Origin: a virus
Reading direction: 5' to 3' (one strand)
Virus record (IMG/VR): IMGVR_UViG_3300045988_170943
Location: 352,001-416,000 of that record
DNA length: 64,000 nucleotides
The notes beneath the pieces are model-generated. The model was not told where the DNA came from, did not search any database, and worked only from the letters and a program-made list of their open reading frames with translations. The position numbers were made by a program, and so were the translations under genes. Below are positions 1-42,597 of this stretch, in pieces (within the stretch, counting starts at the first letter, position 1; each line of letters opens with the position of its first letter).

Positions 1-73
1 GCGGACATGGCTCAGTTGGTAGAGCACCTGGTTCCCATCCAGGAGGTCGCGGGTTCGATCCCCGTTGTCCGCT
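1..73 (+). tRNA. tRNA-Gly (anticodon CCC)
   Basis: Cloverleaf by eye: acceptor gcggaca/tgtccgc, D-arm gctcagttggtagagc, anticodon stem cctgg/ccagg with loop ttCCCat, T-arm gcggg-ttcgatc-cccgt. CCA not encoded. Confidence 0.75.
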
Positions 74-74
74 C

Positions 75-159
75 GCTCAGGTGGCGGAATGGTATACGCG
101 CTGCCTTGAGGTGGCAGTGGGCTGTAAGGTCCATGCAGGTTCGACTCCTGTCCTGAGCA
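75..159 (+). tRNA. tRNA-Leu (anticodon GAG), type II with long variable arm
   Basis: Acceptor gctcagg/cctgagc, anticodon stem ctgcc/ggcag with loop ttGAGgt, 17-nt variable arm, T-arm gcagg-ttcgact-cctgt. Confidence 0.7.
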
Positions 160-165
160 CTTGAC

Positions 166-330
166 AAACCCCAGAAGTGTAGACTTTCTCTTACTTCTTG
201 TGGAATAGGAGAGGACCAGGGTTCGAGTCCCTGGCTGAGAAGGCGAGTCCTTCCAGTGGTGTATCGGGTTAGCACGTTAACGTCAGAGGGGGCCGCTTTT
301 TCTCTGGGGTTTGTCACACAACTCGCCTGA
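166..330 (+). ncRNA. candidate Y RNA (YrlA-like tRNA-like RNA) upstream of Ro60 gene
   Basis: Perfect T-arm mimic (caggg-ttcgagt-ccctg) flanked by an acceptor-like helix (cttctt.../...gagaag), but no D-arm or anticodon arm. A long-range helix pairs ccccaga (172-178) with tctgggg (~303-311). It lies between the tRNA array and the TROVE/vWA (Ro60) gene. Confidence 0.3.
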
Positions 331-604
331 ATCCTCTCACCATTATGTGATCATGTGGTGACACAAGTGAGGAGGGGGCACACTCACACTACGGAACATA
401 TGCTTCCTTGGTGTGGGTGTTTCTGGTTTCGTCGCCAGTTCAGGTACGAAGGCGCAGATGCGTAGTGGTAGGTTACTTCACATTGATTTACACTCAATCC
501 CTAAAACCTGCTGCGGCTGGTTCTCTGCGTCTATAATTTACGAAACGGACTCAACACCAGCCTGGGTCATGAAGCCATCATAGTCTCAAGGAAGGGTGAG
601 CAAA

Positions 605-2197
605 ATGGCAAGGATGAACACGAAGAGCGCTGCTGTAAAGAACAGTGCGTCTTCTCCAGTCAAGACCCGTAAGAGCGGTAAGCGAGTCGCTACGGCCGAA
701 GGTGGGGCCGGGTGGAAGCGCACCGCTAAGAGTGAGTTATTTCTTGCTGCGGTCACAGGCCTGAATGAGGACACGTTCTATGAGTCCGCTGAGAACCGTC
801 AAGAGCGTGTCGCCAAGTTGGTTGCGAAGGTCGCTAAGAATGGCGAGTGGATTCTCGGCCTAGTCGGGTGGCTCCGTCGTGACGCTGGTCTCAGGGCTGT
901 TCCTGTAATGGTTGCTGCTGAGGCTGCCCACTACCGTCTCAGCAAGGGCATGAACGGGCTCAACCGTGAGATTGTTCGTGCATCCATTGGACGCCTGGAT
1001 GAGACCAGTGAGTTCATTGCCTACTGGCTGGAGCGTTTCGGCCGCAAGATCCCGTCCGCTGTCAAGCGCGGTATCAGTGACGCCCTGAACGACCTACTCA
1101 ACGAGGGCTCATACCTGAAGTGGAGCGGTCGCGCATCCCGTGGATCCGTGTCCCTGGGCGACGTCATCAACCTCGTGCACGCTAAGCCGAAGGACAACCA
1201 CCAGTCAGCGCTCTACCAGGCCGTCCTTGACCGCCAGTACGGGGCAAAGGAGGACCTGACTGCACTGCCTGTCATGAAAGCCCGCCAGGACTTTCTGTCT
1301 ATGCCGGTAGACAAGCAGATCAAGGTCCTGTCTGGTAAGAAGGCTGACAGTGTGATCAAGTCAGCGCGCCTCACGCACGAGGTTATCTCCGGGTCTATTG
1401 GCAAGATTCCGGCCGAGGTATGGGAGAACCTGATCCCGCACATGGGGTACACCGCTTTGCGCATGAACCTCAGGCGAATCAGCGAATCCGGTGTCAGCCT
1501 TGACGTAATCGACGAGATCAACAAGGTACTCCGAGACAAGGAGAAGGTCGCCCACGCCAAGGTCATGCCAATTGACTTCCTTCGTGCCTACAGGAATGCT
1601 CCACTAGACTTCCATGCCGCACTCCAACGAGGCGCAAACGGGGTCCTGGACAACATTCCAGCACTCAAGGGACGCACACTAGTCCTACTGGATCGATCAG
1701 GCTCAATGGGAGACCACCTGTCCTCCAAGAGCCAGATCACCAGACAGGACGCAGCCAATGTCTTTGCGGCAGCCCTGGCGCTACGCTGCGAGGATGTTGA
1801 CGTGGTTGCTTTTGACAACGACAGCCAGAGGATCAGCATCACCTCCAAGGATTTGTTGAAGGTTGTTGAGAAGGATATGCCGGATTCTCGTGGTGGTACC
1901 TACACCGCACGAGCATTCAGGGAGCACTACAACAACCACGACAGGGTTATCGTCCTCACAGACGAGCAGACATCCATGTCCTCATACTGGACAGGTGGAG
2001 AGAGTCTTGACGGGGCTCTAGATGCTGGACTGAAGAAGGGTGCAACAGTGTTCACCTGGAACCTTGCTGGGTACACTGCCGCACACAACCAGTCCAAGGA
2101 TCGTCGCTGGACCTTTGGTGGGCTTACTGACAAGGGGTTCCAGATGATCCCGCTACTGGAGAGAGGTGTGTCTCAGTCCTGGCCCTGGGAGAACTGA
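605..2197 (+). CDS. rsr: Ro60/Rsr ortholog (TROVE domain plus C-terminal vWA domain with MIDAS motif DRSGSMGD)
   Basis: The translation has a TROVE-like N-terminal region and a vWA domain (LVLLDRSGSMGD ... VIVLTDEQT). RBS aggaagg lies 8 nt upstream of the ATG at 605. The ORF track starts at GTG 596. Confidence 0.8.
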   Translation: MARMNTKSAAVKNSASSPVKTRKSGKRVATAEGGAGWKRTAKSELFLAAVTGLNEDTFYESAENRQERVAKLVAKVAKNGEWILGLVGWLRRDAGLRAVPVMVAAEAAHYRLSKGMNGLNREIVRASIGRLDETSEFIAYWLERFGRKIPSAVKRGISDALNDLLNEGSYLKWSGRASRGSVSLGDVINLVHAKPKDNHQSALYQAVLDRQYGAKEDLTALPVMKARQDFLSMPVDKQIKVLSGKKADSVIKSARLTHEVISGSIGKIPAEVWENLIPHMGYTALRMNLRRISESGVSLDVIDEINKVLRDKEKVAHAKVMPIDFLRAYRNAPLDFHAALQRGANGVLDNIPALKGRTLVLLDRSGSMGDHLSSKSQITRQDAANVFAAALALRCEDVDVVAFDNDSQRISITSKDLLKVVEKDMPDSRGGTYTARAFREHYNNHDRVIVLTDEQTSMSSYWTGGESLDGALDAGLKKGATVFTWNLAGYTAAHNQSKDRRWTFGGLTDKGFQMIPLLERGVSQSWPWEN

Positions 2198-2350
2198 GAC
2201 AGAAACAGAACGTGACTGCTATCACATCACTGTCAGTTGACATCAGTCTTCTGCTGGTGGTAGAGTAGTCATCATCAAGCCGGTCGGAGAGAACAGGATG
2301 AGGCCAGGCGGGGAACCGAGCAACCCCTTGTTCTCTCTGACCGGTATCAA

Positions 2351-2434
2351 GCCGGAGTGGTGAAATGGTAGACACGCCAGGTTTAGGTCCTGGTGCCTTC
2401 GGGTGTGAGGGTTCGACTCCCTTCTCCGGTACCA
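2351..2434 (+). tRNA. tRNA-Leu (anticodon UAG), type II, CCA encoded
   Basis: Acceptor gccggag/ctccggt, anticodon stem ccagg/cctgg with loop ttTAGgt, variable arm tgccttcgggtgt, T-arm gaggg-ttcgact-ccctt, ends ...a-cca. Confidence 0.75.
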
Positions 2435-2510
2435 AGCGCAACATGTGCTCACAGAATCAGAGGCGTATGCGCTTGAATCACAACTACATAGCGTAAGATG
2501 TAGATTTCAT

Positions 2511-2593
2511 GCTGGATTGGCGTAACGGTAGACGCGCTCGCTTCAGGTGCGAGTGTCCGAAAGGATGTGAGGGTTCGACTCCCTCATCCAGTA
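2511..2593 (+). tRNA. tRNA-Leu (anticodon CAG), type II
   Basis: Acceptor gctggat/atccagt, anticodon stem ctcgc/gcgag with loop ttCAGgt, variable arm tgtccgaaaggatgt, T-arm gaggg-ttcgact-ccctc. Confidence 0.7.
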
Positions 2594-2896
2594 CGATGAT
2601 GAGACCACAGTCACACCAACAAGTGTTGACAAATGTTCACAAGGAACGCTACAATAGGTTTCGTCAAACAGACATGGGAACGAGCGGATCACTCGTTTGC
2701 TTTCGGTTGATCACCGAAAGACGTGCGTAAATCCTCGCACGGTTGTGTACATGGCGTCCGAAATCAAAGGGGGCGGTGGAAGGCCAGCAGGGCTGGTCAC
2801 AAGCCGTCCCTGGAGAAATAAGGGAAGAGGTTCGACTCCTCTTTACACAGCGATGGCAGCACCAACCAAAGGGGCCGCCACAACAATAAATACATC

Positions 2897-2969
2897 TCTC
2901 CGTTCGTCTAGCGGCCAAGGACACTGGACTTTCAATCCAGCGACGCGGGTTCAAATCCCGTACGGAGGA
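2897..2969 (+). tRNA. tRNA-Glu (anticodon UUC)
   Basis: Acceptor tctccgt/acggagg, D-arm gtctagcggccaaggac, anticodon stem ctgga/tccag with loop ctTTCaa, T-arm gcggg-ttcaaat-cccgt. Confidence 0.75.
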
Positions 2970-3046
2970 CCATCTCAACTCAATAGAGAACAACGCCCAC
3001 CAGAACTACTGCCACACAGGATGCTGGCAGCAAGGTGGGAAGCAAT

Positions 3047-3128
3047 GCCCTGGTGGTGGAATGGTAGACACGGCGGCCTCAAAAGTCGCTGCCGCAAGGC
3101 GTGAGGGTTCGACTCCCTCCTGGGGCAC
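3047..3128 (+). tRNA. atypical type II tRNA-like gene (Leu-like, possible anticodon CAA) with oversized anticodon loop
   Basis: Acceptor gccctgg/ctggggc has two wobble pairs. D-arm and T-arm (gaggg-ttcgact-ccctc) match the neighbouring Leu tRNAs. The anticodon region ggcgg-cctcaaaagtcg-ctgcc folds only with a 12-nt loop. Confidence 0.45.
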
Positions 3129-3260
3129 AATGATCCAAAACACAATTGTGAGGCACCATCACGAAAGTGATGCAAGCAACATGGATCAAACTTGACGAGG
3201 CCAACCTGAAGGTGCTACAATATAAGCACAAGATGAGAAAACTTGTCGAGAACAACATGA

Positions 3261-3332
3261 GCCTATGTAGTTCAATGGAAGAATACCACTCTCCTAAAGT
3301 GGGGGTTAAGGGTTCGAGTCCCTTCATAGGCA
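3261..3332 (+). tRNA. tRNA-Arg (anticodon CCU)
   Basis: Acceptor gcctatg/cataggc, anticodon stem ccact/agtgg with loop ctCCTaa, T-arm aaggg-ttcgagt-ccctt. Confidence 0.7.
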
Positions 3333-3382
3333 CTATCTTGACACTGAAACTCTGTGTAGTTTTGTGTCAGGATAAACACGAT

Positions 3383-3454
3383 GCCCCTGTAACTCAATGG
3401 ATAGAGTAGCAGCCTTCTAATCTGCATGTTGTCAGTTCGAGTCTGACCAGGGGT
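3383..3454 (+). tRNA. tRNA-Arg (anticodon UCU)
   Basis: Acceptor gcccctg/caggggt, D-arm actcaatggatagag, anticodon stem gcagc/tctgc (4 bp plus a mismatch) with loop ctTCTaa, T-arm gtcag-ttcgagt-ctgac. Confidence 0.6.
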
Positions 3455-3488
3455 ACTATTCAGAATGTGAGAGGTTCTGAAAATTCAT

Positions 3489-3581
3489 GCCCCCATAGCT
3501 CAGTTGGTTAGAGCAGCGGCCTTATACACCGTTTCGTGCCTGATATGCACAAGGTCCTGGGTTCGAGTCCCAGTGGGGGTA
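3489..3581 (+). tRNA. atypical 93-nt tRNA-like gene with ~20-nt insertion between D-arm and anticodon arm (possible anticodon GAU, Ile)
   Basis: Acceptor gccccca/tgggggt, canonical D-arm tagctcagttggttagagc and T-arm ctggg-ttcgagt-cccag. An extra gcggccttatacaccgtttc precedes the hairpin gtgc-ctGATat-gcac. Confidence 0.4.
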
Positions 3582-3624
3582 CTCGCATCACAAGCCATCT
3601 CAGTCCTGAACCGCAAGGAGCATC

Positions 3625-4176
3625 ATGTCTGACGACCTGACTGCTGAGCAACGCAAGTCTGATCTCAATGTAACCCTGAACGACCTGGTGGCTTCGTATC
3701 ACGGGCGAGTGTTTCGCGCCTCTGACCCTGTGCGCCTGTTGATCAGCCTGATCAAGAATGTTGGTGACTTCGCTGACTGTTGGGAAGAGTCTTCTCGTAA
3801 CCTTGATGACTATTCGCCACGGATTCAGTCCGCGTGCAAGAACCTGGTATACACATGCCTGAACATTACTGAGGCTGACGTTGAGATCGAGTACGACCTG
3901 CACAGTATCGTTGACTCGATTATGGACAAGTCTGACTTCTGGTGGCAAGAAGACATCATGGATGAGTACGAGTATGATCTTGCCATGCCCGCTGTTGACA
4001 GGGTGCAGAGCATGCTTGCATCAGTGGGTGATCTTGCGTCTGTGTGGCCGCACTGCGATCCGCACCCCCGCCCGGATGGCTATGACCTGATTGAGAGAAA
4101 GATGGACGCCCTGGAGTTCGTCATCTATCAGGCTGCATCTGCCCTGGTTGCTGTGCAGCGTGGGGCCCTGGGGTAG
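3625..4176 (+). CDS. hypothetical acidic protein
   Basis: 183-aa ORF with RBS aaggag 6 nt upstream. No recognisable motifs. Confidence 0.5.
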   Translation: MSDDLTAEQRKSDLNVTLNDLVASYHGRVFRASDPVRLLISLIKNVGDFADCWEESSRNLDDYSPRIQSACKNLVYTCLNITEADVEIEYDLHSIVDSIMDKSDFWWQEDIMDEYEYDLAMPAVDRVQSMLASVGDLASVWPHCDPHPRPDGYDLIERKMDALEFVIYQAASALVAVQRGALG

Positions 4177-4262
4177 CCCATGGAGCCTGAGCGAGTATAG
4201 GCCCTGACAACCTAGGTTACCTCCCACGTGCTCTGTTGTGATAAGCGCCACTTGATGCAGTG

Positions 4263-4292
4263 TTGACACAGCGGCCGCGCCTGTCATATACT
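4263..4292 (+). promoter_or_regulatory. sigma70-like promoter (TTGACA-18-TATACT) next to GTGAC..GTCAC palindromes
   Basis: ttgaca at 4263-4268 and tatact at 4287-4292. Inverted repeat gtgacactt-N9-aagtgtcac at 4347-4373 precedes tRNAs 4432 and 4597. Confidence 0.35.
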
Positions 4293-4431
4293 GTAGGTGA
4301 GTAAGGGGCCGGTAAGGACACAGTTACGATTGAACCTTTCAGGTCGCCTCCCACTGTGTGACACTTGATGCCATTAAGTGTCACCAAACCTCTTGTGGAT
4401 GACACTTAAACACTTAAGGTGCCACCACGTT

Positions 4432-4506
4432 GCCCGGCTAGTTTAGTGGTCAAAACGCTTCCTCGGTAAGGAAGAGATGCCAGTTCGATTCTGGTGCTGG
4501 GCTCCA
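4432..4506 (+). tRNA. tRNA-Thr (anticodon GGU), CCA encoded
   Basis: Acceptor gcccggc/gctgggc, anticodon stem cttcc/ggaag with loop tcGGTaa (C at position 33 is unusual), T-arm gccag-ttcgatt-ctggt, ends t-cca. Confidence 0.6.
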
Positions 4507-4596
4507 GTATCTCACCCCCATACACACCCCTGGCCCGCGCGGTCTCATGCCACCTCTTTCCGGGGTAGCAGGCTTTGTGTGGGGTAAAGGTACGCT

Positions 4597-4672
4597 GCCG
4601 GATTAGTTCAACTGGCTAGAACGGTCGTCTCGTAAGCGACAGGAGCGGGTTCGAGTCCCACATTCGGCTCCA
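4597..4672 (+). tRNA. tRNA-Thr (anticodon CGU), CCA encoded
   Basis: Acceptor gccggat/attcggc, D-arm gttcaactggctagaac, anticodon stem gtcgt/gcgac with loop ctCGTaa, T-arm gcggg-ttcgagt-cccac, ends t-cca. Confidence 0.7.
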
Positions 4673-4831
4673 CATTGTTCTCCCGGCCTCTTCATTGTGG
4701 AAGGGCCGGTTTTGTTGTTTCTTGTATTCTCGTGGGCGACATCGGGTTGCTGTTACTGTCTTGCCCGACCTAGCGAAAGTATCGTGTAGAGGCGTCTTGG
4801 GCGCTTAGGTCTTTGCCTGTCTGCTATTCCA

Positions 4832-5647
4832 GTGCGTAAAGCAAGCATGTGGACAGATGGGACACGCCTAGTTATGGATACTGTGAAGCCGGTCAGTTAC
4901 AACGTGACCACCCCAGACAGGTGTGATCTACCGGCATGGTACCTGCCACTGATGCCATACGCTCTGAAGGCGTGTTTTGTTGTATCCAAGCATGAGGACG
5001 TAGACTCGTCGTTCTACTATGTGACAGCACCCGACAGGAACCTCTGGGATCCGGTGTTCTCCACCCTCACTGAGACTGTGGACTTCCTGAGACGTTACGA
5101 CACTGGCTTCTACCTGGACAACTCCTGTGGCAGAAGGGAACAGGGGACCTTCCTGGACTGGTCGGATTATGGGCGCATCCAGGCTGTTCGCCACCGCACC
5201 GCATGGTTCACGCAACGTATTGCCTGCCAGTACGTTATCAACCCGGAGGACTATCGGGCGTCCAGTGACTTTGTAAGGAATCACCCAGCCTTATGGAGGC
5301 TGCGGGCACCATCCACAAGGATCAACACGGTCTCGGCTGTCTCACTCCCCACCGCTGACCCAATCCTCATCCATGAGACCAACGACGGGCTTCATACTGC
5401 GGGTATTACTGAGTTGGCTGCACTGGAGTCGGCGGTGATGCTGGGTAGTGGCCTGTGTGCCAGTGACATACCATCTGGGGTAGGTGTTACCGCTGAGGAT
5501 GCTGTGACAGGTCTAGCGGCAAACATGGCGGCCGTGTTCGACCATGAGGGTAACCTACAGAATGTAGTAGAGGCTCGACCTGTCCACCCCTCTGCTGCCA
5601 GCGGTTTGATGTCAGGATCACGCACAAGGCGACATCAAGTCGGGTAG
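4832..5647 (+). CDS. hypothetical protein
   Basis: 271-aa ORF. Start uncertain between GTG 4832 and ATG 4847. No motifs recognised. Confidence 0.4.
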   Translation: MRKASMWTDGTRLVMDTVKPVSYNVTTPDRCDLPAWYLPLMPYALKACFVVSKHEDVDSSFYYVTAPDRNLWDPVFSTLTETVDFLRRYDTGFYLDNSCGRREQGTFLDWSDYGRIQAVRHRTAWFTQRIACQYVINPEDYRASSDFVRNHPALWRLRAPSTRINTVSAVSLPTADPILIHETNDGLHTAGITELAALESAVMLGSGLCASDIPSGVGVTAEDAVTGLAANMAAVFDHEGNLQNVVEARPVHPSAASGLMSGSRTRRHQVG

Positions 5648-5688
5648 CGGGCGGGCGGTAACAGGAACAAACAAGGTAAGGGGCACAA

Positions 5689-6156
5689 GTGGACGCCAGA
5701 AGAAACGGGGTTATCACCTGGGACCAGATGTTCATGAGGTTCGCTCAGGTCGCTGCGCTGCGATCCAAAGACCCTAGCACACAGGTAGGTGCCTGTATCG
5801 CATCGCCCGATAACCGGGTTCTGTCCATCGGATACAACGGGGCACCAGCCGGGTTCGACGACGAGGACTTCCCCTGGGGTAGAGATGCGGAGGACCCCAT
5901 GTGCACAAAGTACCCGTATGTGGTTCACGCTGAGGCTAACGCCATCCTGAACTTCCGTGGGGCCAGGAGTGAGATTGCTGGTTCTCGACTCTATGTGACT
6001 CACTTCTGCTGCAACGAGTGCGCGAAGATGATCGCTCAGACGGACATTAGTGAGGTCATCTACCTGCACGATCATGCCATGTCGAATGGTCTCACCCCGG
6101 CGACACTCACGATCTTCAAGCGCAAAGGTGTCCAGTACAGGCAGATGCAGTCATAG
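5689..6156 (+). CDS. dCMP/cytidine deaminase (zinc-dependent CDA fold)
   Basis: Signature H-A-E (VVHAEANAI) and PC..C (CCNECAKMI) zinc-ligand motifs. RBS aaggtaagggg upstream. Confidence 0.75.
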   Translation: MDARRNGVITWDQMFMRFAQVAALRSKDPSTQVGACIASPDNRVLSIGYNGAPAGFDDEDFPWGRDAEDPMCTKYPYVVHAEANAILNFRGARSEIAGSRLYVTHFCCNECAKMIAQTDISEVIYLHDHAMSNGLTPATLTIFKRKGVQYRQMQS

Positions 6157-6263
6157 TTGAGACCATGCGGCAGGGTGGCTGCTGGGGCTCGGTATCTTCA
6201 CTGGTGGGGTTGCATTCAGGGTGTCGAGCCGACTTATGTGACAATAGTCACCTCAAGGGCAAG

Positions 6264-6293
6264 TTGACGCCCTAACGCCCCGCATGGTAGGAT
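6264..6293 (+). promoter_or_regulatory. sigma70-like promoter (TTGACG-18-TAGGAT) upstream of tRNA-Ser
   Basis: ttgacg at 6264-6269 and taggat at 6288-6293. Palindrome gtgacaatagtcac at 6238-6251 lies just upstream. Confidence 0.3.
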
Positions 6294-6367
6294 GTAGCCA
6301 CAACGTTGAGAACAGGGTTCTGGCACACTCAGGGCGCTGGGTGATATTCCTGCCTCAACTGAATAAT

Positions 6368-6452
6368 GGATGGTTGCCCGAGCGGCCAAAGGGGACAGCC
6401 TTGAAAACTGTAGTGCTGAAAGGCACCGGGGGTTCGAATCCCTCACCATCCG
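6368..6452 (+). tRNA. tRNA-Ser (anticodon UGA), type II
   Basis: Acceptor ggatggt/accatcc (perfect), Ser-type D-arm cccgagcggccaaaggg, anticodon loop cTTGAaaa, variable arm agtgctgaaaggcac, T-arm ggggg-ttcgaat-ccctc. Confidence 0.7.
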
Positions 6453-6504
6453 CGACCAGGTGAACCCCCACGGACGGGTTTGAGCCGGTGTCACAACCAA
6501 ATAT

Positions 6505-6577
6505 GCCGTTTTAGTTCAATTGGTAGAACGCCTGTCTTGTAAACAGGAGGTCATCGGTTCGATCCCGATAAGCGGCT
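6505..6577 (+). tRNA. tRNA-Thr (anticodon UGU)
   Basis: Acceptor gccgttt/aagcggc, D-arm gttcaattggtagaac, anticodon stem cctgt/acagg with loop ctTGTaa, T-arm atcgg-ttcgatc-ccgat. Confidence 0.75.
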
Positions 6578-6815
6578 CTAGGGCGCACGCTCTCTTTCCT
6601 TCCTTATAGTGTGCGCCCGCCCCCCTTTTTTGGTGTTTCCCCTGGTGTTAAAAGGTGGATAGACTCCCTGCACCCATAACCACCCACACCATATTATGTG
6701 TGATTGTTTTCTCAGTATGGTGCGAGAGTGGAAAAGACAACAGGGTCTTCCTTGTTGGATAAACTAGGTAGCAGCAAATGTCATCTACCACAGAAATCCA
6801 CTAGAGGAGAAACAC

Positions 6816-7355
6816 ATGGCGTCAGATCAGAGCCGCAAGGTTGAAGAGTTCTACAGGGCGTTCCAGCAGGAGCGGTACCTGCCTGACCCTGAAAGCAAGC
6901 CGTCACTAGAAGTCATGGGTGATAGTCGAGTTGACCTTAGGATGAGCCTGATCGTTGAGGAGTTCTGCGAGTTGATTGCAGCAGTCTACAACGAGAAGGC
7001 TGCACAGGAGATGGAGAACACCTGGTGGAACCTTTTCGACGATCATGTCATCACTGAGGAGAACCGCAACTATAATGTGGTTGCTGCCGCAGACGCCACC
7101 GGGGACCTCCGTTACGTCATTGAAGGGCTGGACCTGGAGGCCAATATTCCCTCCGAGGCTATCTTCAATGAGATCCATGTCTCCAACATGTCTAAACTTG
7201 ATGACGAAGGTAACCCGGTCATCTCGGACGGCACAAACAAACCCAAGGGGAAGATCCTCAAGGGTGACAACTACTTCGCGCCAGACCTCAAAGCCATCAT
7301 CGAAGGTCGTACCCCAGACCGCACCCCAGTAAAGTCCAAGAAGGAGAACGCATGA
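6816..7355 (+). CDS. MazG-like nucleotide pyrophosphohydrolase (all-alpha NTP-PPase)
   Basis: EExxEL-type motif (LIVEEFCELIAAV) and downstream D..GDL.YVIEGL. RBS ggagaa. Confidence 0.5.
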   Translation: MASDQSRKVEEFYRAFQQERYLPDPESKPSLEVMGDSRVDLRMSLIVEEFCELIAAVYNEKAAQEMENTWWNLFDDHVITEENRNYNVVAAADATGDLRYVIEGLDLEANIPSEAIFNEIHVSNMSKLDDEGNPVISDGTNKPKGKILKGDNYFAPDLKAIIEGRTPDRTPVKSKKENA

Positions 7356-8110
7356 GACTAGCCAGGAGCCATGGAACAAGGGTAAGAAAGACGATCCTTA
7401 CTGCCGCACTAGGCGTCCTCGTCGCTGGTCTCCTGTCCAGTTGCGGTGGGGCATCCAAGACTAACCCATCATCCACAGTCAGTGCGGGGGTAAACGCCAC
7501 CGCCATCGCAACCACAGGTTCAGGTGCACAGGCCCCAGGCGCGGTAAAGAACGACACCACTGGTGCGGCCCAGTTCGCCAAGTCCTACTATGAGGCATGG
7601 TTCACGTCCAGCAGTGACAGCACCTACAGTGAACTCAGCAACGCCCTGAACGAGGCCACCAAGGACATTGACCGAAACAAGGTCGTCCAGGATGACCCCA
7701 TGAGCGTGTTCAACGCCATGACCGAGGCGCAGCAGAAGAGCATCGCTGAGAAAACCACCCAGATCAACCCCATGTCCGACTACTACGACACTACGGGCAT
7801 GACCGATGCCGAGATCGCCATCCTCAACGTCATCGCCACCGGATTCTCCTCCGGCTACCACACGGACCAGAAGGTTACTGTGGCCGTCAATAAGGACAAG
7901 GTGACAGTAGACGGTAGCACCGGATCGGTCCCCTACACTGCTCTCACTGTGACCGTTGGAGACAAGAGCAACACGCCTACCGGCACCGACTTCACTCTGC
8001 CCCTGATCTACAAGGATGGCAAGTGGAAGGTTGACGGGAAGAAGTTCAGCGCCATGGTGATCAGCAACTACAACACCCACCAGTCCGCAACCGCCACACC
8101 AACACCATAA
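7352..8110 (+). CDS. secreted lipoprotein (lipobox LSSC)
   Basis: Signal peptide MRLARSHGTRVRKTILTAALGVLVAGLLSSCGG with Cys at +1. Start overlaps the upstream stop (ATGA). RBS aaggag. Confidence 0.55.
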   Translation: MRLARSHGTRVRKTILTAALGVLVAGLLSSCGGASKTNPSSTVSAGVNATAIATTGSGAQAPGAVKNDTTGAAQFAKSYYEAWFTSSSDSTYSELSNALNEATKDIDRNKVVQDDPMSVFNAMTEAQQKSIAEKTTQINPMSDYYDTTGMTDAEIAILNVIATGFSSGYHTDQKVTVAVNKDKVTVDGSTGSVPYTALTVTVGDKSNTPTGTDFTLPLIYKDGKWKVDGKKFSAMVISNYNTHQSATATPTP

Positions 8111-8163
8111 CAAACAGTCAGGTAGGTGTGACACTATTCACACAATACGGCCCCTCCCAGGAG

Positions 8164-8193
8164 TTGACATTCGGGAGGGGCTGTTGATATATT
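8164..8193 (+). promoter_or_regulatory. sigma70-like promoter of tmRNA (TTGACA-18-TATATT)
   Basis: ttgaca at 8164-8169 and tatatt at 8188-8193, 13 nt upstream of the predicted mature tmRNA 5' end. A GC-rich hairpin lies just upstream. Confidence 0.5.
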
Positions 8194-8206
8194 AGAGTCA
8201 CGCCTT

Positions 8207-8582
8207 GGGGCAGACAGGTATTCGACATGCGATGCTTGCTTGTGTTGAGTGCGAGCCACCCTTGAACCATGGGTGTCAAACAGGTTCAAACCAACAGTTG
8301 CCAACTCTGACAACTTCGCTCTCGCCGCCTGAGAGCCGCCTGAATCCCACAAGGTAAGGCCCTGCCGGGACTCAATTCAGGTGTTATCGCTAGGGGCTAT
8401 GGTCAAGCGCCTGTCACCTGGGTGCGGGCCGAGAAACTAAACAGGTGACAACCAGGGTTGTGGTAGTCATGCAGGACCATTCCAAACCTTACATGGTTGT
8501 AAAACACTAACGGATCCTGCTACGCTCGTAGAACTTAAAACAGGCACATTCTTGGACGAGGGTTCGATTCCCTCCTGCTCCA
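8207..8582 (+). ncRNA. ssrA: tmRNA (ssrA), tag peptide (A)ANSDNFALAA
   Basis: The 5' end ggggcagacaggtattcgac matches the tmRNA 5' consensus. It pairs with the 3' acceptor ctgctcc. The 3' tRNA-like domain is ggacgagggttcgattccctcctgctcca. An internal tag reading frame gcc aac tct gac aac ttc gct ctc gcc gcc tga runs 8300-8332. Confidence 0.75.
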
Positions 8583-8789
8583 CTATCCAACCGGGGTGCC
8601 GCCAGTGAGTGATGAAACTGGCGGCACCCCGGCTTCCTGCATATGCTCATGCCAATACCACATTAGGTGGCTACCCCTATCCCAGTGTGTCCATACGTTC
8701 TATCTCCTGTAGCAGTCGATACACTATGAGGTAGCACCTGCCATAACCGATGCGGTACCCCATCACGGCGCCCTACCCTGAGGAGAATC

Positions 8790-9980: not shown

Positions 9981-10100
9981 CGCACCCCAAAAGAACGCAA
10001 GTAGATGCCCATAGTGTCCCTGGCCTGGAGGTAGAATCCGCCCCAGGGCAACCCGACCCAGGTACCCCAATAGTCAAAACACAACAGCAGTGAGGTAGCC

Positions 10101-11597
10101 ATGCCAGCAGTCAAGGATCAGTTCGTCTCCCTGCACATGCACTCCGACTACTCCCTACTGGACGGCTACGCCAAGCCAGGAGAGTACATCAACAGGGCTA
10201 TCGAACTTGGGCAGCCAGCCATTGGGCTCACAGATCACGGGAACCTTCATGGCATCAAGCAGTTCATTGACCAAACCAGGGACGCTGGCCTCACCCCAGT
10301 ACCCGGTTCCGAGTTCTACATGGCCCCCATCAGTGATGACGGACCATACCCCAAGCATCCTGTCTACTACGGTGAGGGTGGCCGCAAGAACCCTGAGCAT
10401 GACGTGTCCGCTAACGGGACCTACCTGCACCTAACTGTCTGGGCTTACAATGACGCCGGTTTGAGTAACCTGAAGCGCCTGTCCACGCTCGCCTATGCCC
10501 CAGAACGCTACTACCGGAAACCACGCATCGGGTTTGACGACCTGGCGGACCACTCAGACGGACTCATCGTATCCACGGGCTGCCCCTCATCAGAGATCAG
10601 CACCAGGTTACTCATGGGACAGGAGCAAGCAGCCTATGAGTACGCTGGGCGCATGAAGGAAGTGTTCAAGGACCAACTGTTCATGGAGATCATGAACCAT
10701 AACATGAGCATCGACCTTGAACGCAAACTACTGCCTCAGCAGATGCGTCTAGCGAAACGACTCAACCTCCCCCTACTGGCAACCAACGACTGCCACTACG
10801 CCAACTCCGGGGACGCCCAGGGACACAGTGAGATGCTTTGCATCCAGTCAAAGTCCCTCATGAGTGACAAGACCTATGATCAGGGCGGTAAACGGTTCGC
10901 GTTCAACGGCGACCAGTACTACATGAAGTCCGGGGCACAGATGGCGGCACTGTTCCCTGAAGATGACTATCCCGGCGCCCTGTCGAACACGCTACTGATC
11001 GCAGAGATGGCCTCAGACATTAGGATGGTGTTCGACCCCCACCTGAGGCCCGTCCCGTTTGTCCCTGAGGGCACCACGGTAGAGAAGCATCTCCAGCAGA
11101 TGATCAACGACGGATACAAGGCCAAGTATGTGAACCGTGACTACCCAAGCGTGGAGGAGCGCAAACGTGTCCTGAGTGAAGCAAAACGACGCATTCGTGA
11201 AGAGTGGGAGGTCATCTACTCGTCCGCGTTTGACGGGTACATGTTGGTCGTGGAGGACTATCTGAGATATATCCGGGAGAATTACTCGGTGCGAGGCGAG
11301 AACGGGGAGATCCTTGCATCTCCGTTGGGGCCGGGCCGCGGCAGTGTCGGCGGGTGCATCATCGCATACCTGCTGGGCATCTCTGAGATCGACCCTATTG
11401 AGTATGATCTCCTGTTCGAGCGTTTCCTGTCTCCTGGGCGTGGCGCTGTCTGTCGGGTCACTTATGATGACGGCACTACCGAGGACCTTGTGGTGTCCGA
11501 AACCAGAACTGTGCTGGGTGATGATGGTCAGGAGGTAGGCAGATACATTCACCAGATCAACATTGGGGATAAGGTTGTCATTGAAGAGGAGCACTAA
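10101..11597 (+). CDS. dnaE: DNA polymerase III alpha (DnaE)-like N-terminal fragment: PHP domain, truncated before the catalytic PDxDxDF motif, ending in a Cys-initiated Hint-like tail
   Basis: N-terminus VSLHMHSDYSLLDG is the PHP signature. NDCHYAN, GPGRGSVGG and LLFERFLSPGR align to DnaE. Where E. coli DnaE continues VSMPDFDVDF, this ORF reads CRVTYDDGTTEDLVV... (48 aa) and then stops, adjacent to tnpB. Confidence 0.7.
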   Translation: MPAVKDQFVSLHMHSDYSLLDGYAKPGEYINRAIELGQPAIGLTDHGNLHGIKQFIDQTRDAGLTPVPGSEFYMAPISDDGPYPKHPVYYGEGGRKNPEHDVSANGTYLHLTVWAYNDAGLSNLKRLSTLAYAPERYYRKPRIGFDDLADHSDGLIVSTGCPSSEISTRLLMGQEQAAYEYAGRMKEVFKDQLFMEIMNHNMSIDLERKLLPQQMRLAKRLNLPLLATNDCHYANSGDAQGHSEMLCIQSKSLMSDKTYDQGGKRFAFNGDQYYMKSGAQMAALFPEDDYPGALSNTLLIAEMASDIRMVFDPHLRPVPFVPEGTTVEKHLQQMINDGYKAKYVNRDYPSVEERKRVLSEAKRRIREEWEVIYSSAFDGYMLVVEDYLRYIRENYSVRGENGEILASPLGPGRGSVGGCIIAYLLGISEIDPIEYDLLFERFLSPGRGAVCRVTYDDGTTEDLVVSETRTVLGDDGQEVGRYIHQINIGDKVVIEEEH

Positions 11598-13300
11598 AAC
11601 CATCTGAGTACGTATGTGCCACTTCATCTGAACACCTCCCCCTACCTCCTGGAGCAACCGGACCCGTGACTTCTCACGTGTTATTGTGGTTACCATATAG
11701 GGTATGACTATTCCTTAGGATAAACCACATCTACTGTATTTGCAACAGATAGGTCCCTTGTTGGAATTGTCGTGCCGCTGGTTGTCTGAAACCACTCCCT
11801 GTGGTCCACCGCAGAAACCCTAGACTCTGCGGGGCACATCCTTACACTCACCTCCCTCGACTGAAAAGATGGGCGAGTGTGGGTCTTCTTCTGGTTCTGG
11901 GGTGCTTTAGGAGTAGGCCTGTTCTTCGTGCCAGGATGCCTCAGTGGCTTCACACGGCACTTGGATCTTCTGATGCGCTTGGTCTTTGTGGCGTGCCGTC
12001 TCCGTGTCTGGCACGCCTTCTTGACATTCACTCGCTGAGCGATGTTCGCCGCCGCGTTCAAGTCACGATGATGAGTGATGCCACAGGCCGTACAGCGCGG
12101 CTGAGAATAGTCCTGCATGTCCAGGTCAGACTGACACACATGACACCTTCGGGATGTGTGCGCGGCGTTGACCTTCAAGACGCGCCCGCCGTCAGCCTCA
12201 ACCATATCCCGAGTACGCCTGTGGACCTCGCCACGAAACCAGCGGCCGAACTTCATGGTGTTCTTGATGTGAGACAAGTCCTCAAAGGAGACGATGGCAT
12301 TGTCATAACGCCAGGCCGCGTCTGTGATCTCCTGAGCAACGAGGATGCTCAGTTCCTTACGCCGGTTAGACAAGTGACCCCTGTGTGATGCGGCCTCCTC
12401 AGGGCGGTTCTTCCTCTGCAAAGAGGAAACCTGAACCTGAGCCCTCTTAATCTTATTGTTCAAGGACCTGGCACGCTGCCCTAGAAGAGACTGATCAACA
12501 ACCTTTCTGCCCTTGGTATCCCAGACGACGTAAGTGGCCGGGTTAGTCACACCAACATCCACGCCAATAACATAGCGGCTAGAAAACTCGGGACGTCCAG
12601 GATTGGTCTTGCCATGAAAGCCAAACATCACGCGATTCTGATTATCGACCCATATGTCCGGCACGCCAGTCTCACAACCCTTTTCCAGTAATTGGGGTGG
12701 CGTTGGGAAGTGAAGAGTAGTCCATTGGCCTTGAACGACTAGATCCAGGATGATCTTGTCTTCCTGGACATGAATCCTTCTGTACTGGTTGTTTGTTGCA
12801 GAAAGAGAAAGGCGAGGTTGCAGGTCTTTTGGTTTAGAATCCTTGACTGTTCTCTTCCACCCGGCCGAAACATAACCATTATGCGTCCCGTTAGTGGCAT
12901 TGACTCGGGCGGCCCAGGATCTCAGTGTCGAGACCACTCGCTCACGAAACAGCATCTCCAACCGTGAGGCCCCACTCCTGAACCGATTCTTCACCTCACT
13001 GGGAAGAAACAGGCCCATACGCCTACCAGCCTCAGCGGGCTTGAACCTGTCGAAGTAGGTCACCAGGGCAAGATTCTGCTCAGTCAACTCCCGCAGAGCA
13101 TACTCGGCAACCAGTTCAGCATCCGCTCTGATGCCGTCCAGGACCTCATCAAGGTTCAGAGGATCACCAGTCTTACTGAACGCAGCATATGGTGTCCTTG
13201 GGTACGTACGCGACACAGTAGTTCTAGACACCTGGTGAGCCTCCCCCAAGAACTTGACTGGTTGATGGTATGCGTGTATTATAGCACAATATTAGTGGAG
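11550..13300 (-). mobile_element. IS200/IS605-family TnpB-only element (IS1341-like), approximate ends
   Basis: A 513-aa TnpB occupies almost the whole interval. An AT-rich promoter lies at 13250-13440. The predicted right end and omega-RNA region overlaps the 3' end of the DnaE fragment. Boundaries not resolved. Confidence 0.45.
11708..13249 (-). CDS. tnpB: TnpB (IS605 OrfB family, RuvC-like RNA-guided nuclease) with C-terminal zinc finger
   Basis: C-terminal CHVCQ...CTACGITHHRDLNAAANIA (RuvC-III plus Zn finger), preceded by the D...G.N and E motifs typical of TnpB. Confidence 0.8.
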   Translation of the reverse strand: MGEAHQVSRTTVSRTYPRTPYAAFSKTGDPLNLDEVLDGIRADAELVAEYALRELTEQNLALVTYFDRFKPAEAGRRMGLFLPSEVKNRFRSGASRLEMLFRERVVSTLRSWAARVNATNGTHNGYVSAGWKRTVKDSKPKDLQPRLSLSATNNQYRRIHVQEDKIILDLVVQGQWTTLHFPTPPQLLEKGCETGVPDIWVDNQNRVMFGFHGKTNPGRPEFSSRYVIGVDVGVTNPATYVVWDTKGRKVVDQSLLGQRARSLNNKIKRAQVQVSSLQRKNRPEEAASHRGHLSNRRKELSILVAQEITDAAWRYDNAIVSFEDLSHIKNTMKFGRWFRGEVHRRTRDMVEADGGRVLKVNAAHTSRRCHVCQSDLDMQDYSQPRCTACGITHHRDLNAAANIAQRVNVKKACQTRRRHATKTKRIRRSKCRVKPLRHPGTKNRPTPKAPQNQKKTHTRPSFQSREVSVRMCPAESRVSAVDHREWFQTTSGTTIPTRDLSVANTVDVVYPKE

Positions 13301-13448
13301 AATACCAGTAGGAGTAAGGTTAACATAATAATGGTGAACTACAGTGGAATAGGCAGATACAGAACCTATGTCGCGCCTCCACACTAAGAGGACAGACTGG
13401 GATGACAGCATGTGGTGAAACCTTGTACAGGGTGGACGGAGAATACGG

Positions 13449-14537
13449 ATGGCAGATAGAAACAGTGGTAGCGACCCGAAGTTGGAACTCTACAAGCGGT
13501 ACCGGCCCAGCAGGTGGGATGAACTCGTTGGGCAGCAAAAGGTTGCTCACAGTATCCAGGCGGCACTAGCCGCAAATCGGGTCCCTACTGCCTATGGTTT
13601 CTTTGGCCCGCGTGGATGCGGTAAGACTAGCGCCGCATTCATCTTGGCGAAGTCCCTCAACTGCCTCAACATACAGGACGGCCAGAACCCTTGTAATGAG
13701 TGTGACGTGTGCCAGGCTATTGACGACCGCTCCCAGCCGGGCGTCCAGTACATCAGCATGGCGAACCATGGCAGTGTTGACCATATCCGGGAACTTATGC
13801 GTGACTCCAGTCAGGCGACCTACATCAACCGGGCTGTCATCATCATGGACGAGGTGCACAACATCAGCCGCAGCGCATTTGACTCGATGCTGACTACGAT
13901 AGAGGATGAGCACACTCCAGCCCTTATGATCTTCTGCTCCACTGAAGAGGACAAGATCCCCGACACTATCATCTCCCGGCTTCAGGCCCGCACCTTCCGG
14001 CTCGTGAACAGTGATGACATGATTGGTCTCGTATCCCGAATTCTGGACGAGGAGGATGTGTCTGTCAGTGACGAGGCCCTGCTGGAAGTGATTCAGCGTG
14101 GTCGCGGGTCTGTGCGTGACACCTTGTCTGTGTTGGAGGGCCTGATCGTTGGCGGGGACCTGTTGGAGCGTCCTGCCGGGCTGGGGATCCTGGAGGCGTT
14201 GGCTGCCCTGGACGTGCCTGGGTGCTTGAAGGCTGTGAAGGAAGGGTCGGATGCGGGCTACAGTGGACGAACTATGGCTGAGGGTTTGTTCTCGGACCTC
14301 GTGAGCGTCATACAGGCGGTTTCTGGTGTTCGAGGCGTCGTACCTCCAGTGCGGGATGTTCAGGGCTTCTATGACGCCATGGGCGGGTTGCGTGGCCTGT
14401 TCGCGGTGGAGCGCGAGGTGGGGGACGCTATCAATCGTATGTCCATTGGGGCGGACTCTCTGATCCTGTTCCAGATTGCTCTTTTCAACGCTTTGGATAA
14501 GTTGAGGGACATCAGAGATGGTGTAGGCAAGAAGTAG
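13449..14537 (+). CDS. DnaX-like (Pol III gamma/tau family) AAA+ clamp-loader subunit
   Basis: YRPSRWDELVGQ, P-loop GPRGCGKTS, zinc module C..C..C, sensor SRLQARTFRL, and a GS.RD motif. Confidence 0.7.
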   Translation: MADRNSGSDPKLELYKRYRPSRWDELVGQQKVAHSIQAALAANRVPTAYGFFGPRGCGKTSAAFILAKSLNCLNIQDGQNPCNECDVCQAIDDRSQPGVQYISMANHGSVDHIRELMRDSSQATYINRAVIIMDEVHNISRSAFDSMLTTIEDEHTPALMIFCSTEEDKIPDTIISRLQARTFRLVNSDDMIGLVSRILDEEDVSVSDEALLEVIQRGRGSVRDTLSVLEGLIVGGDLLERPAGLGILEALAALDVPGCLKAVKEGSDAGYSGRTMAEGLFSDLVSVIQAVSGVRGVVPPVRDVQGFYDAMGGLRGLFAVEREVGDAINRMSIGADSLILFQIALFNALDKLRDIRDGVGKK

Positions 14538-14590
14538 CGCCTGGAAGAAAACACCTGAGGTCAACATGTGTTGAGTTTTTGGGCATTAAG

Positions 14591-14640
14591 AACGGCGGCC
14601 ATATGTAGAAGTTAAAGCACCTCTACGGCCGCCGTTTTTC
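14591..14640 (+). terminator. rho-independent terminator
   Basis: 10-bp perfect stem aacggcggcc/ggccgccgtt with an internal helix, followed by TTTTT. Confidence 0.6.
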
Positions 14641-17618: not shown

Positions 17619-18632
17619 TCACCTCAGGGACTCCCGCAACTTCATGATCTGACTGTTATAGACACCCCGAATACGCCCAGAGGACCTTCGGTCATAGCGC
17701 CCATCTTCCCCAACCTCAAACTGTTTCATGAACCTGTTAATGTAGTCAATAGACTTCGACACCTTCTTAACCTGCTCAGGAGTCATCTCCTTATACAGGG
17801 CAAACCGGCGGAAACTCTCAATCCTTGACAGAACCTCATCCTTCTTATCCTCAGGGACCCTGCTGGTAGACTGCACCCACTCGTTCAAGTCCTTGTTACG
17901 TCGCTCACTGTTGCAGCCAATACACGCCAGGGCCATATTCCCGTAGCGAGTTGTGCCAGGAGGCGGATTCTTCGGGGTCACTGGTGTCAAATGCTCCCCG
18001 GATGCTGCATGCTCATTACCAACACCCGACTGAAACGGCTTGTGGCAGTAGCAGCAGCGGCCACCAAAGAACATAACCGAGGCAACATACCGCTCACGGG
18101 TCATGTCGTTCATCGCAGACGTCAAGATTATCCTTTGAGGCTGATGACGCCTACCATCATTGCGCCACTCAATTGAGGCCGTCATAGACTTGACGTTAGT
18201 AGCAATGATCCTTGAGAACTCCTTCAAATCGACATCATCACCAAGGAACTCCCTCGTCCTCCTGGCGATTGGATCCTTACTTGACAAGAAAGCGTAAATG
18301 TTTCCCTCCGCTCTCTGAAAACGCCTCTGGAGCCTAGGATCATTCAGCCTGTCCTCAAACTTGCTGTAGAAGTCCCGGATAAACGAATAGTCCTCATGAG
18401 AAAACTGCTCCGCCACAGACTCAACCGACTCATGGAACTCCTTCCGAGTCATGCTTCTACCGTAGTACGAGGACACCATGCCAGGAGTCGGTGTCGCCTT
18501 CTTCAAGGCCACCTCAGTGCTCTGCTCGCCTTCTTGCCGAGCCTTGTTCGTCGATGTCGCCAACGCGCCATGAGCCTTCGCCAGAACCTCCTCATTGAAC
18601 GCCCGGATCGTCGCATCACTAGCGTCACTCAT
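17619..18632 (-). CDS. HNH endonuclease-domain protein (free-standing, homing-endonuclease-like)
   Basis: His-Me finger: CCYCHKPF ... EHLTP ... GNMALACIGCNSERRNK. Start placed at internal Met (MSDASD). Confidence 0.55.
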   Translation of the reverse strand: MSDASDATIRAFNEEVLAKAHGALATSTNKARQEGEQSTEVALKKATPTPGMVSSYYGRSMTRKEFHESVESVAEQFSHEDYSFIRDFYSKFEDRLNDPRLQRRFQRAEGNIYAFLSSKDPIARRTREFLGDDVDLKEFSRIIATNVKSMTASIEWRNDGRRHQPQRIILTSAMNDMTRERYVASVMFFGGRCCYCHKPFQSGVGNEHAASGEHLTPVTPKNPPPGTTRYGNMALACIGCNSERRNKDLNEWVQSTSRVPEDKKDEVLSRIESFRRFALYKEMTPEQVKKVSKSIDYINRFMKQFEVGEDGRYDRRSSGRIRGVYNSQIMKLRESLR

Positions 18633-18973
18633 AATGTGCTGGCCGTGCTTACAGCGGCCCTTACCTACATTCTCCGGTTTCGCCCTGCACAAAGACAAGG
18701 TACCATCAGCGTTCTGCCCAAAACGACGCTCAACAGCCACCACGAACCACACTCCCACAAAATCTCAAACCAGCAAACCCTATCACCCTAGGAATAAAGC
18801 CAGCACACTGTACACGACAGTAAACATTCCTACAGGACATATCTAAAACCACTTGTCCAGAACCAGCCGGACAACACTCCAACAAGCGCCCCTAAGAACG
18901 ACAGGCACCAGAAGACCCAGAGTGTCACCCTTCTCATGCCACAAACCTAGAGCAACGGGCGCAAGGAAGGCCC

Positions 18974-36147: not shown

Positions 36148-36216
36148 GACACCACGCCAACCCCACAAAGACTGCAACAACCAGCACAAGGCTACACCAC
36201 TACCACAGGAGCCCAG

Positions 36217-38891: not shown

Positions 38892-39086
38892 CCTACCCCC
38901 AGCCATCAACATGTGTTGAACCTGAGTGGTTAATACAAACACCTCAGCCGTTGCTCTTACAGACAAGGCTGGGGTGTTTCTGTTGCCTCTTTGTAGGCAG
39001 AATAAGGGCGTCGATATGTGTGCGCACGACATCACGTGCACAACTCTACAGACATGCGAACTTCACACTAAAGAACGGACACAACT

Positions 39087-39704: not shown

Positions 39705-39857
39705 AGTCAAAACACCTACCCCAAGAAACAGGGATGCAACCCACCCACACTTCCAAGGCAGGGGATAGATTATCGACTGCTGCCAGACGGAAGGATATTG
39801 AAAACCTATGAGAAACTACCACGATTCGCTTACTAGATGTGACGAAAGAAGGTCGCC

Positions 39858-40313: not shown

Positions 40314-40380
40314 TAGCCTCCAGGGGTCTCAAAACTTTCATCGCACACTACCACACTGACTGCATGGAGCAAACACTTAC

Positions 40381-41586: not shown

Positions 41587-41612
41587 AAATAGGATCGACA
41601 TAACTGCTACAC

Positions 41613-41652
41613 AATCCTGAGGAATCCCCGATATTCCTCAGGATTTTATTTC
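41613..41652 (+). terminator. rho-independent terminator
   Basis: 13-bp stem aatcctgaggaat/attcctcaggatt with loop ccccgat, followed by ttttattt. Confidence 0.6.
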
Positions 41653-41677
41653 GCCTGACACAGAAGGAAGCGCCCCG

Positions 41678-42523: not shown

Positions 42524-42547
42524 CTAGGGATCTCCTGAGTCGATATA

Positions 42548-42597
42548 GTAAGGGTACCGAAAGTTGCAAAACAATCGGTACCCTTACACTTTTCTAC
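42548..42597 (+). terminator. hairpin terminator
   Basis: 12-bp stem gtaagggtaccg/cggtacccttac, followed by acttttct. Confidence 0.45.

Follow-up and report, generated by a model that had tools for sequence, protein, structure and literature searches.

The dnaE-N gene and its domains

The stretch of viral DNA analysed here, a window of 64,000 nucleotides (positions 352,001 to 416,000 of the IMG/VR record IMGVR_UViG_3300045988_170943), carries on its plus strand, at 10101–11597, the gene dnaE-N. Its 498 codons plus stop encode what Pfam matches, homologues and an AlphaFold2 (AF2) model identify as the N-terminal half of a DNA polymerase III alpha subunit (Pol III alpha, DnaE) encoded by two genes. 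The gene is followed by tnpB on the opposite strand and then by a dnaX-like gene on the plus strand. An initial annotation, made from the sequence alone, had described the same layout: an open reading frame (ORF) with PHP and palm sequences, similar to Pol III alpha up to a break and continued for 48 residues to a stop; a tnpB gene about 110 bp further on; and a DnaX-like clamp loader as the next gene. ORF and Pfam analyses bear out this layout, with the 3' end of tnpB lying 110 bp past the dnaE-N stop codon.

Pfam assigned a PHP domain (PF02811, E 1e-37) to residues 11–200 (10131–10700, plus strand). Nine residues presumed to be its metal ligands, as in the PHP domains of Pol III alpha, are all present (H12, H14, D21, H46, E71, H110, C161, D230 and H232), and they are invariant or nearly so in 72 family members. 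The palm's N-terminal portion, from the nucleotide-binding GPGRGS motif to LLFERFL (11088–11444, plus strand), was recognised by PF07733 (DNA_pol3_alpha; residues 330–448, E 5e-23), but only at positions 2–99 of the 260 in that profile, and by the full-length polymerase profile PHROG 405, of whose 1190 positions dnaE-N covers 41–439. The AF2 model of the protein has a mean predicted local distance difference test score (pLDDT) of 90.7. The nearest solved structures are those of Mycobacterium tuberculosis DnaE1 (5LEW and 7PU7; E 1e-83, 36% identity, Foldseek E 1e-35), to which the PHP domain aligns along its length. The mycobacterial enzyme is a single chain of 1,184 residues, and the alignment stops exactly at its PDIDI strand, where the tail of the phage protein starts. 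The break falls within the loop that immediately precedes the catalytic PDxDxD strand.

At least 120 homologues of dnaE-N were found, on contigs of up to 727 kb, and all those listed stop at the same point and carry the same conserved tail. They consist of the PHP domain and the first part of the palm, are about 470–580 residues long, and exceed this length only where inteins have been inserted. A blastn search of 10101–13300 against phage records gave no match. The comparison with the family shows the 498-residue ORF to be an intact and native gene whose short form is not the product of truncation.

The partner gene dnaE-C

The initial annotation had noted that no C-terminal half of DnaE follows, and none was found anywhere in the 64-kb window, either by Pfam searches of 28 of the larger ORFs or by a six-frame scan for PDxDxD, HxxG and KMDFLG motifs. 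The missing half was found in relatives. In the locus L005, dnaE-N (487 residues) is followed by a dnaX-like gene (358 residues) and then by a gene of 909 residues, dnaE-C, which encodes the remaining palm, the fingers and the helix-hairpin-helix (HhH) region; the same gene order occurs at 12 IMG/VR loci. The fingers (PF17657) and HhH (PF14579) domains were recognised in dnaE-C of L005 and of a second relative, L080. The dnaE-C family has at least 120 members. The two halves complement each other on both polymerase profiles, the N-half covering positions 2–99 and the C-half 100–260 of PF07733, and 41–439 and 441–1065, respectively, of PHROG 405. The catalytic Asp triad (D19, D21 and D182 in the numbering of family protein P0121) is invariant in dnaE-C of the relatives, and the window itself holds only the half with the GS motif. 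The two half families show little or no variation in GPGRGS, in PDxDxD and at the third Asp. The conservation of the PHP ligands, the GS motif and the Asp residues points to purifying selection on both halves.

The dnaE-C proteins of this family begin in a similar way. Their consensus, M..KKIxxIxVI(K/R)PGSxPDVDSDF, comprises a basic head of about 14 residues that leads straight into PDxDxDF, so that the catalytic Asp motif begins at residue 17–20 in 105 of the 120 members. The stretch before the Asp, ...VI(K/R)PGS(N/P)PD(V/I)D(S/T)DF with a Pro preceding the catalytic Asp, is found in the 120 partner N-termini and in L080, whose dnaE-C starts with MSKVTKRVVGMEIISPGSPPDIDSDF; the start expected for the dnaE-C that belongs with the window would be M..K..VVGMEIISPGSPPDIDSDF. 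The charge of the head is positive in 93% of the members, with a mean of +2.9. In an AF2 model of the C-half alone, the head is disordered (pLDDT < 50 for residues 1–6 and 8–17) and most of the remainder is confidently predicted. The initial annotation had suggested looking for an ORF in which an IntC-like peptide precedes PDIDIDF; an ORF family with PDxDxDF close to its start does exist, but its head is not IntC-like.

The distance between the two genes varies. At eight IMG/VR loci, dnaE-N does not lie within 4 kb upstream of dnaE-C. Two of these (IMGVR_UViG_3300008363_000089 and 3300007825_000031) carry an N-half 98% identical to that of the window and have dnaE-C on the same strand, 169.8 kb from dnaE-N. 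More than 90 near-identical variants of the L080 dnaE-C are present on contigs of up to 424 kb. These comparisons show that the partner exists as a separate gene, which for the window would lie outside the analysed stretch, about 170 kb off if its closest relatives are a guide.

In L078, the two halves overlap in different frames (ATGAAGAAAATTAA, at 3983–4011), an arrangement that could be taken to mean that they are joined at the RNA level, by a trans-splicing intron, ribosomal bypass or a frameshift, and introns are known in phage polymerase genes (PMC7824862). However, a whole dnaX gene stands between the halves in most relatives and 170 kb in the clade of the window, the halves each possess a stop or start whose context is conserved, and an Rfam scan of the window at gathering thresholds returned only tRNAs and a transfer-messenger RNA (tmRNA). 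We regard joining at the RNA level as highly improbable.

The C-terminal tail of dnaE-N

Past ...LLFERFLSPGRGAV, the point at which the similarity to Pol III alpha ends, dnaE-N continues with CRVTYDDG... for 48 residues (451–498; 11451–11594, plus strand) and then stops; the complete tail, which ends in IGDKVVIEEEH, reads CRVTYDDGTTEDLVVSETRTVLGDDGQEVGRYIHQINIGDKVVIEEEH. In an alignment of 121 sequences, the tail is about 45–48 residues long and ranks among the best-conserved segments of the dnaE-N family, with S18 invariant and Y7, D9, G10, E13, Y34, H36, L38, G41 and D42 nearly so. Its net charge is negative in 100% of the family members (mean -8.4). AF2 predicts four short beta strands (450–454, 460–464, 468–472 and 478–482) that form a beta meander with pLDDT of about 80–86. 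We propose that this acidic element serves in docking, as set out below.

A phmmer search with the tail alone against 1.84 billion representatives, which has low sensitivity for a single sequence of 50 residues, returned 10 matches. Among them were three C-terminal tails of DnaE-N proteins and, with the VTYDDGTT hairpin motif in common, several Ig-like repeat proteins; Hint proteins were absent from the 10. Unsplit phage DnaEs with 35–38% identity have no insert at the break point, which indicates that tail and head are confined to split DnaEs.

A BLAST alignment to DnaE of Streptomyces phage Nanodon had suggested that the tail is a degenerate duplicate of the segment that follows the break. 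This idea was dropped after hhalign gave the tail profile a probability of 0.1% against the N-terminus of the C-half.

Comparison with inteins

One of the two explanations offered in the initial annotation was a split intein: the tail, regarded as Hint-like and cysteine-initiated, would be a short N-terminal intein fragment (IntN) that trans-splices with a C-terminal fragment (IntC) on a distant partner, as in cyanobacterial DnaE. The products of the so-called fractured genes are ligated by protein trans-splicing too. The distant partner is real, dnaE-C being found about 170 kb away in 98%-identical relatives, but the trans-splicing part of the explanation is not supported, given the unconserved Cys, the lack of a Hint match and the short head. 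Cys does stand at the first tail residue in the window and four relatives, the break falls where inteins typically home, in a catalytic motif that is conserved, the dnaE family is rich in inteins, and the combination of an acidic N-terminal and a basic C-terminal part resembles the charges of split inteins. In contrast, the presumed Cys1 site (position 3 of the tail alignment) is Tyr in 106 of the 121 sequences, and otherwise Phe (6), Cys (5), Ala (3) or Leu (1). The block-B motif TxxH does not occur in the tail, and the best hhalign register sets the invariant Ser18 and Lys/Arg21 in its place. On the partner side, none of the 120 N-termini nor that of L080, the Cys-bearing clade included, has HN followed by Cys, Ser or Thr at the end of the head, which runs out in ...PGS(N/P)PD after about 14 residues. 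Natural split inteins are characterised by Cys1, TxxH and a C-terminal Asn plus nucleophile, with an IntN of 88–105 residues and an IntC of 33–54 residues (PMC2677866), whereas tail and head together amount to about 60 residues.

Profile comparisons gave the same picture. Searched against Pfam at E <= 10, the tail had no Hint or intein match and only sub-threshold similarity to Tudor and DrmE_C; the same scan does pick up the real inteins of L080. The initial annotation had named the lack of any Hint match for the tail as grounds for giving up its reading, and this lack is what the scan showed. As positive controls we used 42 genuine inteins from the same protein family, located at four other sites, all of which start with Cys and nearly all of which have HN at their end, with Ser or Cys as the next residue. 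When the 121-sequence tail profile was compared with these inteins by hhalign, the probabilities were 7.9% and 2.6%, and the tail was aligned with the block-B region of the inteins, not with their N-terminus (score 18.7, P = 0.004; reversed-sequence controls, score 10.6–14.3, P 0.07–0.2). At the level of motifs and profiles, intein hallmarks are shown to be absent from the dnaE break, and we consider a splicing-competent split intein very unlikely.

A related possibility is that tail and head are the remains of an ancient split intein or another mobile element that has lost splicing and kept only the association of its parts as a clamp. The similarity to block B of inteins from the same family, which scores above the reversed controls, would fit such an origin, as would the charge complementarity and the presence of homing-endonuclease-like ORFs at the PDxD site in one phage (L061) and at the junction in another (L074). 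Yet the hhalign probabilities are low, the alignment does not involve the intein N-terminus, the nearest matches to the first hairpin of the tail are Ig-like repeat proteins rather than Hint proteins, and tail plus head are far smaller than a Hint fold. We judge this origin improbable.

Bona fide inteins are found elsewhere in the split DnaE proteins (family proteins P0010–P0225; L080, 3980–8002), at four or more conserved sites (↓ marks the intein boundaries). The N-half has GRG↓C..HN↓SVGGS; the C-half has H(A/P)↓C..HN↓CG, TYGL↓C..HN↓CVYQEQ and FNK↓C..SHN↓SHS. The closest relatives of the window bear inteins at the TYGL and FNK sites. Those in the L080 dnaE-C (TYGL↓C...THN↓CVYQEQ and FNK↓C...SHN↓SHS) are canonical and lie elsewhere than at the break.

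Two further loci have unusual junctions. In L061 (453–4869; IMGVR_UViG_3300045988_149468), an unrelated AT-rich phage, DnaE is broken exactly inside the catalytic motif: ...SKSLPD is followed by a stop codon, a 333-residue GIY-YIG-like ORF and VDTNV.... Mobile insertions may therefore have a hotspot at PDxD. In L074 (2732–3547), a 271-residue ORF resembling a homing endonuclease gene (HEG) is fused to the first residues of dnaE-C at the junction, where the near-identical phage L078 has a simple overlap.

The tnpB element and the dnaE-N/dnaX spacer

The second explanation in the initial annotation was that an intein-bearing dnaE had been disrupted by an insertion sequence (IS), whose right end and omega-RNA region were predicted to overlap the tail. 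As proposed there, we mapped the ends of the element by comparison with relatives that lack it. The 1.65-kb IS occupies 11702–13348 (minus strand) and is absent from this exact site in L001, a 4.5-kb ENA contig, and in the IMG/VR loci L008, L009 and L010, which share 90.5–98.8% nucleotide identity with the window across the aligned segments. In these four genomes the same 498-residue gene end is followed by a spacer that leads directly into dnaX. The spacer of the window is collinear with theirs in its left part (11598–11701), which contains a terminator-like hairpin at 11665–11678 (a consensus match only), and in its right part (13349–13448). The sequence ATAGG occurs on both sides of the IS (11697–11701 and 13349–13353), where the alignment blocks meet, which leaves 5 bp of ambiguity in the exact ends; it could be a duplication or a shared end or target sequence. 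Beyond the spacer lies the dnaX-like gene for a clamp-loader AAA+ protein (13449–14537, plus strand), identified by matches to DNA_pol3_delta2 (E 1e-28), AAA and DNAX_ATPase_lid and to the clamp-loader family PHROG 5846.

Truncation of a full-length or intein-bearing dnaE by this element, with the tail as IS or intein debris, would account for an IS lying so near the end of the gene. It is contradicted by the four IS-free genomes, which share the 498-residue product and its tail, and by the conservation of the tail across a large family. Moreover, the insertion begins 104 bp after the stop codon; there is therefore no overlap between the two, and the tail does not stem from the IS. We give virtually no credence to truncation. 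The initial annotation had also reasoned that the short product would be native if a related genome encoded it with neither the IS nor a distal dnaE-C. IS-free genomes encoding the product do exist, but so does a distal dnaE-C.

The tnpB gene spans 11708–13231 (minus strand; 507 residues as called in public records, with an ORF that reaches a TTG at 13249). Its product matches Cas12f1-like_TNB (PF07282, E 6e-14) and the transposase family PHROG 506, shows no more than 27.6% identity to any TnpB in phage records, and has a RuvC-like D-E-D triad (GVDVG at 229, FEDLS at 322 and RDLNAA at 395) and a zinc ribbon with CxxC pairs at 369 and 386. TnpB is the only product encoded; a tnpA gene for a Y1 transposase is not present in the IS. 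The 3' region of the IS (11702–11960) folds better than shuffled sequences (z = -2.97) and has no Rfam match.

IS200/IS605 elements are marked by a Y1 TnpA, insertion 3' of a transposon-associated motif (TAM) that leaves the target unduplicated, and an omega-RNA encoded at their right end. With the tnpB-only (IS1341-like) members of this group, the IS described here shares TnpB alone, the RuvC D-E-D triad, the zinc ribbon, presence/absence polymorphism and a structured 3' end. It differs in its very divergent TnpB and its 5-bp ATAGG flanks, and neither a TAM nor an omega-RNA was identified.

The site is filled in three assemblies, the IS being 100% identical in L143 and L144, and empty in four genomes. 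In terms of these comparisons, the TnpB element is shown to be a recent insertion that is unrelated to the split of the polymerase and has altered neither coding sequence. In an assembly of the same strain (L145; ENA ERZ28663546 scaffold_4, 257,388 bp), the contig stops 121 bp into the IS, which hints that the IS is repeated or polymorphic in that sample. The window encodes a second TnpB (25090–26619, minus strand, 509 residues), and its identity of only 24% to the TnpB beside dnaE-N indicates that it belongs to a different element.

Proposed assembly of the two halves

We consider it very probable that dnaE-N is an intact native gene for the N subunit of a Pol III alpha made from two genes, that this subunit and the product of dnaE-C associate without a covalent link, and that the IS is incidental. 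Based on the models and alignments described above, we propose the following hypothetical scheme, in which (i) the N subunit would supply the PHP domain and the nucleotide-binding half of the palm, and the C subunit the catalytic Asp residues, the fingers and the HhH region; (ii) the two polypeptides would remain unspliced; (iii) the acidic beta-strand tail of the N-half would probably capture the basic head of about 14 residues of the C-half; and (iv) this docking would set the PDxDxD strand beside the GS motif, giving one non-covalent two-subunit polymerase. Such assembly via tail and head is, to judge from sequence and models, the most likely way in which the halves come together.

Two points weigh against this interpretation. 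The evidence for dnaE-C comes from 98%-identical relatives, and the dnaE-C of the window strain itself was not retrieved. In addition, the weak block-B alignment of the tail (P = 0.004) leaves some room for a remote Hint ancestry, a relationship that the comparisons nevertheless do not support.

A more far-reaching hypothesis is that tail and head form a dedicated, non-splicing heterodimerisation module, possibly a decayed split intein, that joins halves encoded up to 170 kb apart. We advance it as a long shot. If true, huge phages would possess a naturally split, self-assembling polymerase together with a new compact protein-protein clamp. The docking of tail and head proposed above would, if borne out, provide a small natural module for rebuilding a split enzyme without splicing. 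It would also allow the question of why phages have repeatedly broken up replication genes at catalytic motifs to be put to a concrete system.

Relation to known split polymerases

A comparable two-gene DnaE is present in the cultured Cellulophaga phage phiST (gp044 and gp045, KC821604.1; also in phi13:1 and phi19:2), where it is likewise broken before PDIDTDF. The tail of the phiST N-half is homologous to that described here (YKLTLEDGS...FIHDIIEGDDL), and its C-half has a short head, MKIINIEQNTAPKLVNGTLPDIDTDF. Both phiST genes are annotated in GenBank as 'DNA polymerase III alpha subunit', so that the split is already on record; literature searches found no paper that discusses it. The phiST genes differ in their setting: they belong to a 78-kb phage with a Bacteroidota host and are adjacent, only 1 nt apart, whereas here dnaX stands between the halves in most relatives and about 170 kb in the clade of the window.

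The minimal Pol III alpha known from group 2.2 jumbo phages is split into an N-terminal nucleoside triphosphate (NTP)-binding protein and a C-terminal Mg2+- and template-binding protein (Iyer et al. 2021, PMC7824862). These halves are encoded by distant genes and are presumed to reconstitute the enzyme (PMC7824862). Both systems are broken between the NTP-binding region with the GS motif and the Mg2+-binding subdomains with PDxDxD. However, the group 2.2 version is minimal, has no PHP or accessory domains and occurs beside a family B polymerase (PMC7824862), whereas the split DnaE described here is full-size and DnaE1-like and has fingers, HhH and a PHP domain that appears intact.

The DnaE-n and DnaE-c proteins of the cyanobacterial Ssp and Npu systems are likewise encoded by two distant genes whose products must meet. 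They differ in insertion site and are joined by covalent splicing between an IntN of about 100–123 residues, with Cys1 and TxxH, and an IntC of about 36 residues, with HN + Cys; none of these IntN and IntC features is present in the split DnaE described here. The fractured genes of Dassa et al. (2009, PMC2677866) are likewise phage-like genes of DNA metabolism, dnaE included, with a gene between the halves. In contrast to the present locus, which has no intein and a clamp-loader gene between the halves, they encode complete split inteins with all catalytic residues and have a homing endonuclease gene in between (PMC2677866).

Half-length DnaE families are already held in PHROGs. Literature searches found no paper on the full-size split, on the tail and head that go with it or on a separation of 170 kb, only those on the minimal version (Iyer et al.) and on split inteins. 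The two-gene design is largely ordinary. Our results show that a break between the nucleotide-binding and the metal-binding half is tolerated by the palm of Pol III alpha across a large family that includes phages of about 420 kb from the human mouth. For annotation, this means that a 'truncated DnaE' of about 490 residues in a huge-phage contig should not be called a pseudogene, a casualty of IS insertion or the host of a split intein. Such genes encode one part of a conserved polymerase that is made from two genes, and the rest of the genome should be searched for the second gene.

Genome context

Positions 10000–14597 of the window are 100% identical to contigs that reach 418,686 bp in length (ENA ERZ27262911:k119_16908), one of which is labelled as a human oral metagenome, and the 98%-identical relatives in IMG/VR are viral contigs of 201–394 kb. 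The perfect matches, including the oral contig, and the viral relatives together indicate a huge phage of the human mouth.

At 1–8585, the window contains 13 tRNA genes and a tmRNA gene (8207–8583, tag ANSDNFALAA), as well as a Ro60/TROVE-vWA gene at 596–2197. Genes for NrdD and GyrA are also present. Adjoining nrdD is a 379-residue ORF (17619–18758, minus strand) with a weak match to HNH endonucleases (E 0.007), which may be a free-standing homing endonuclease. Between about 53000 and 60000, the GC skew reaches +0.25 to +0.54 and the AT skew falls to -0.64, opposite to the blocks of plus-strand genes. No tandem repeats that would explain this switch were found there, and it probably reflects a run of genes on the minus strand.

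A cluster at 35239–47385 resembles a Tad/Flp pilus or a type II/IV secretion system, here on a huge-phage contig. It comprises two T2SSF (TadB/C-like) genes, an RcpC/CpaB gene, genes for T2SSE ATPases at 36217–37935 and 44524–47385 (minus strand), a ParA/MinD-like ATPase gene at 42650–44077 and an AAA_10/TraG-like ATPase gene at 40381–41586.

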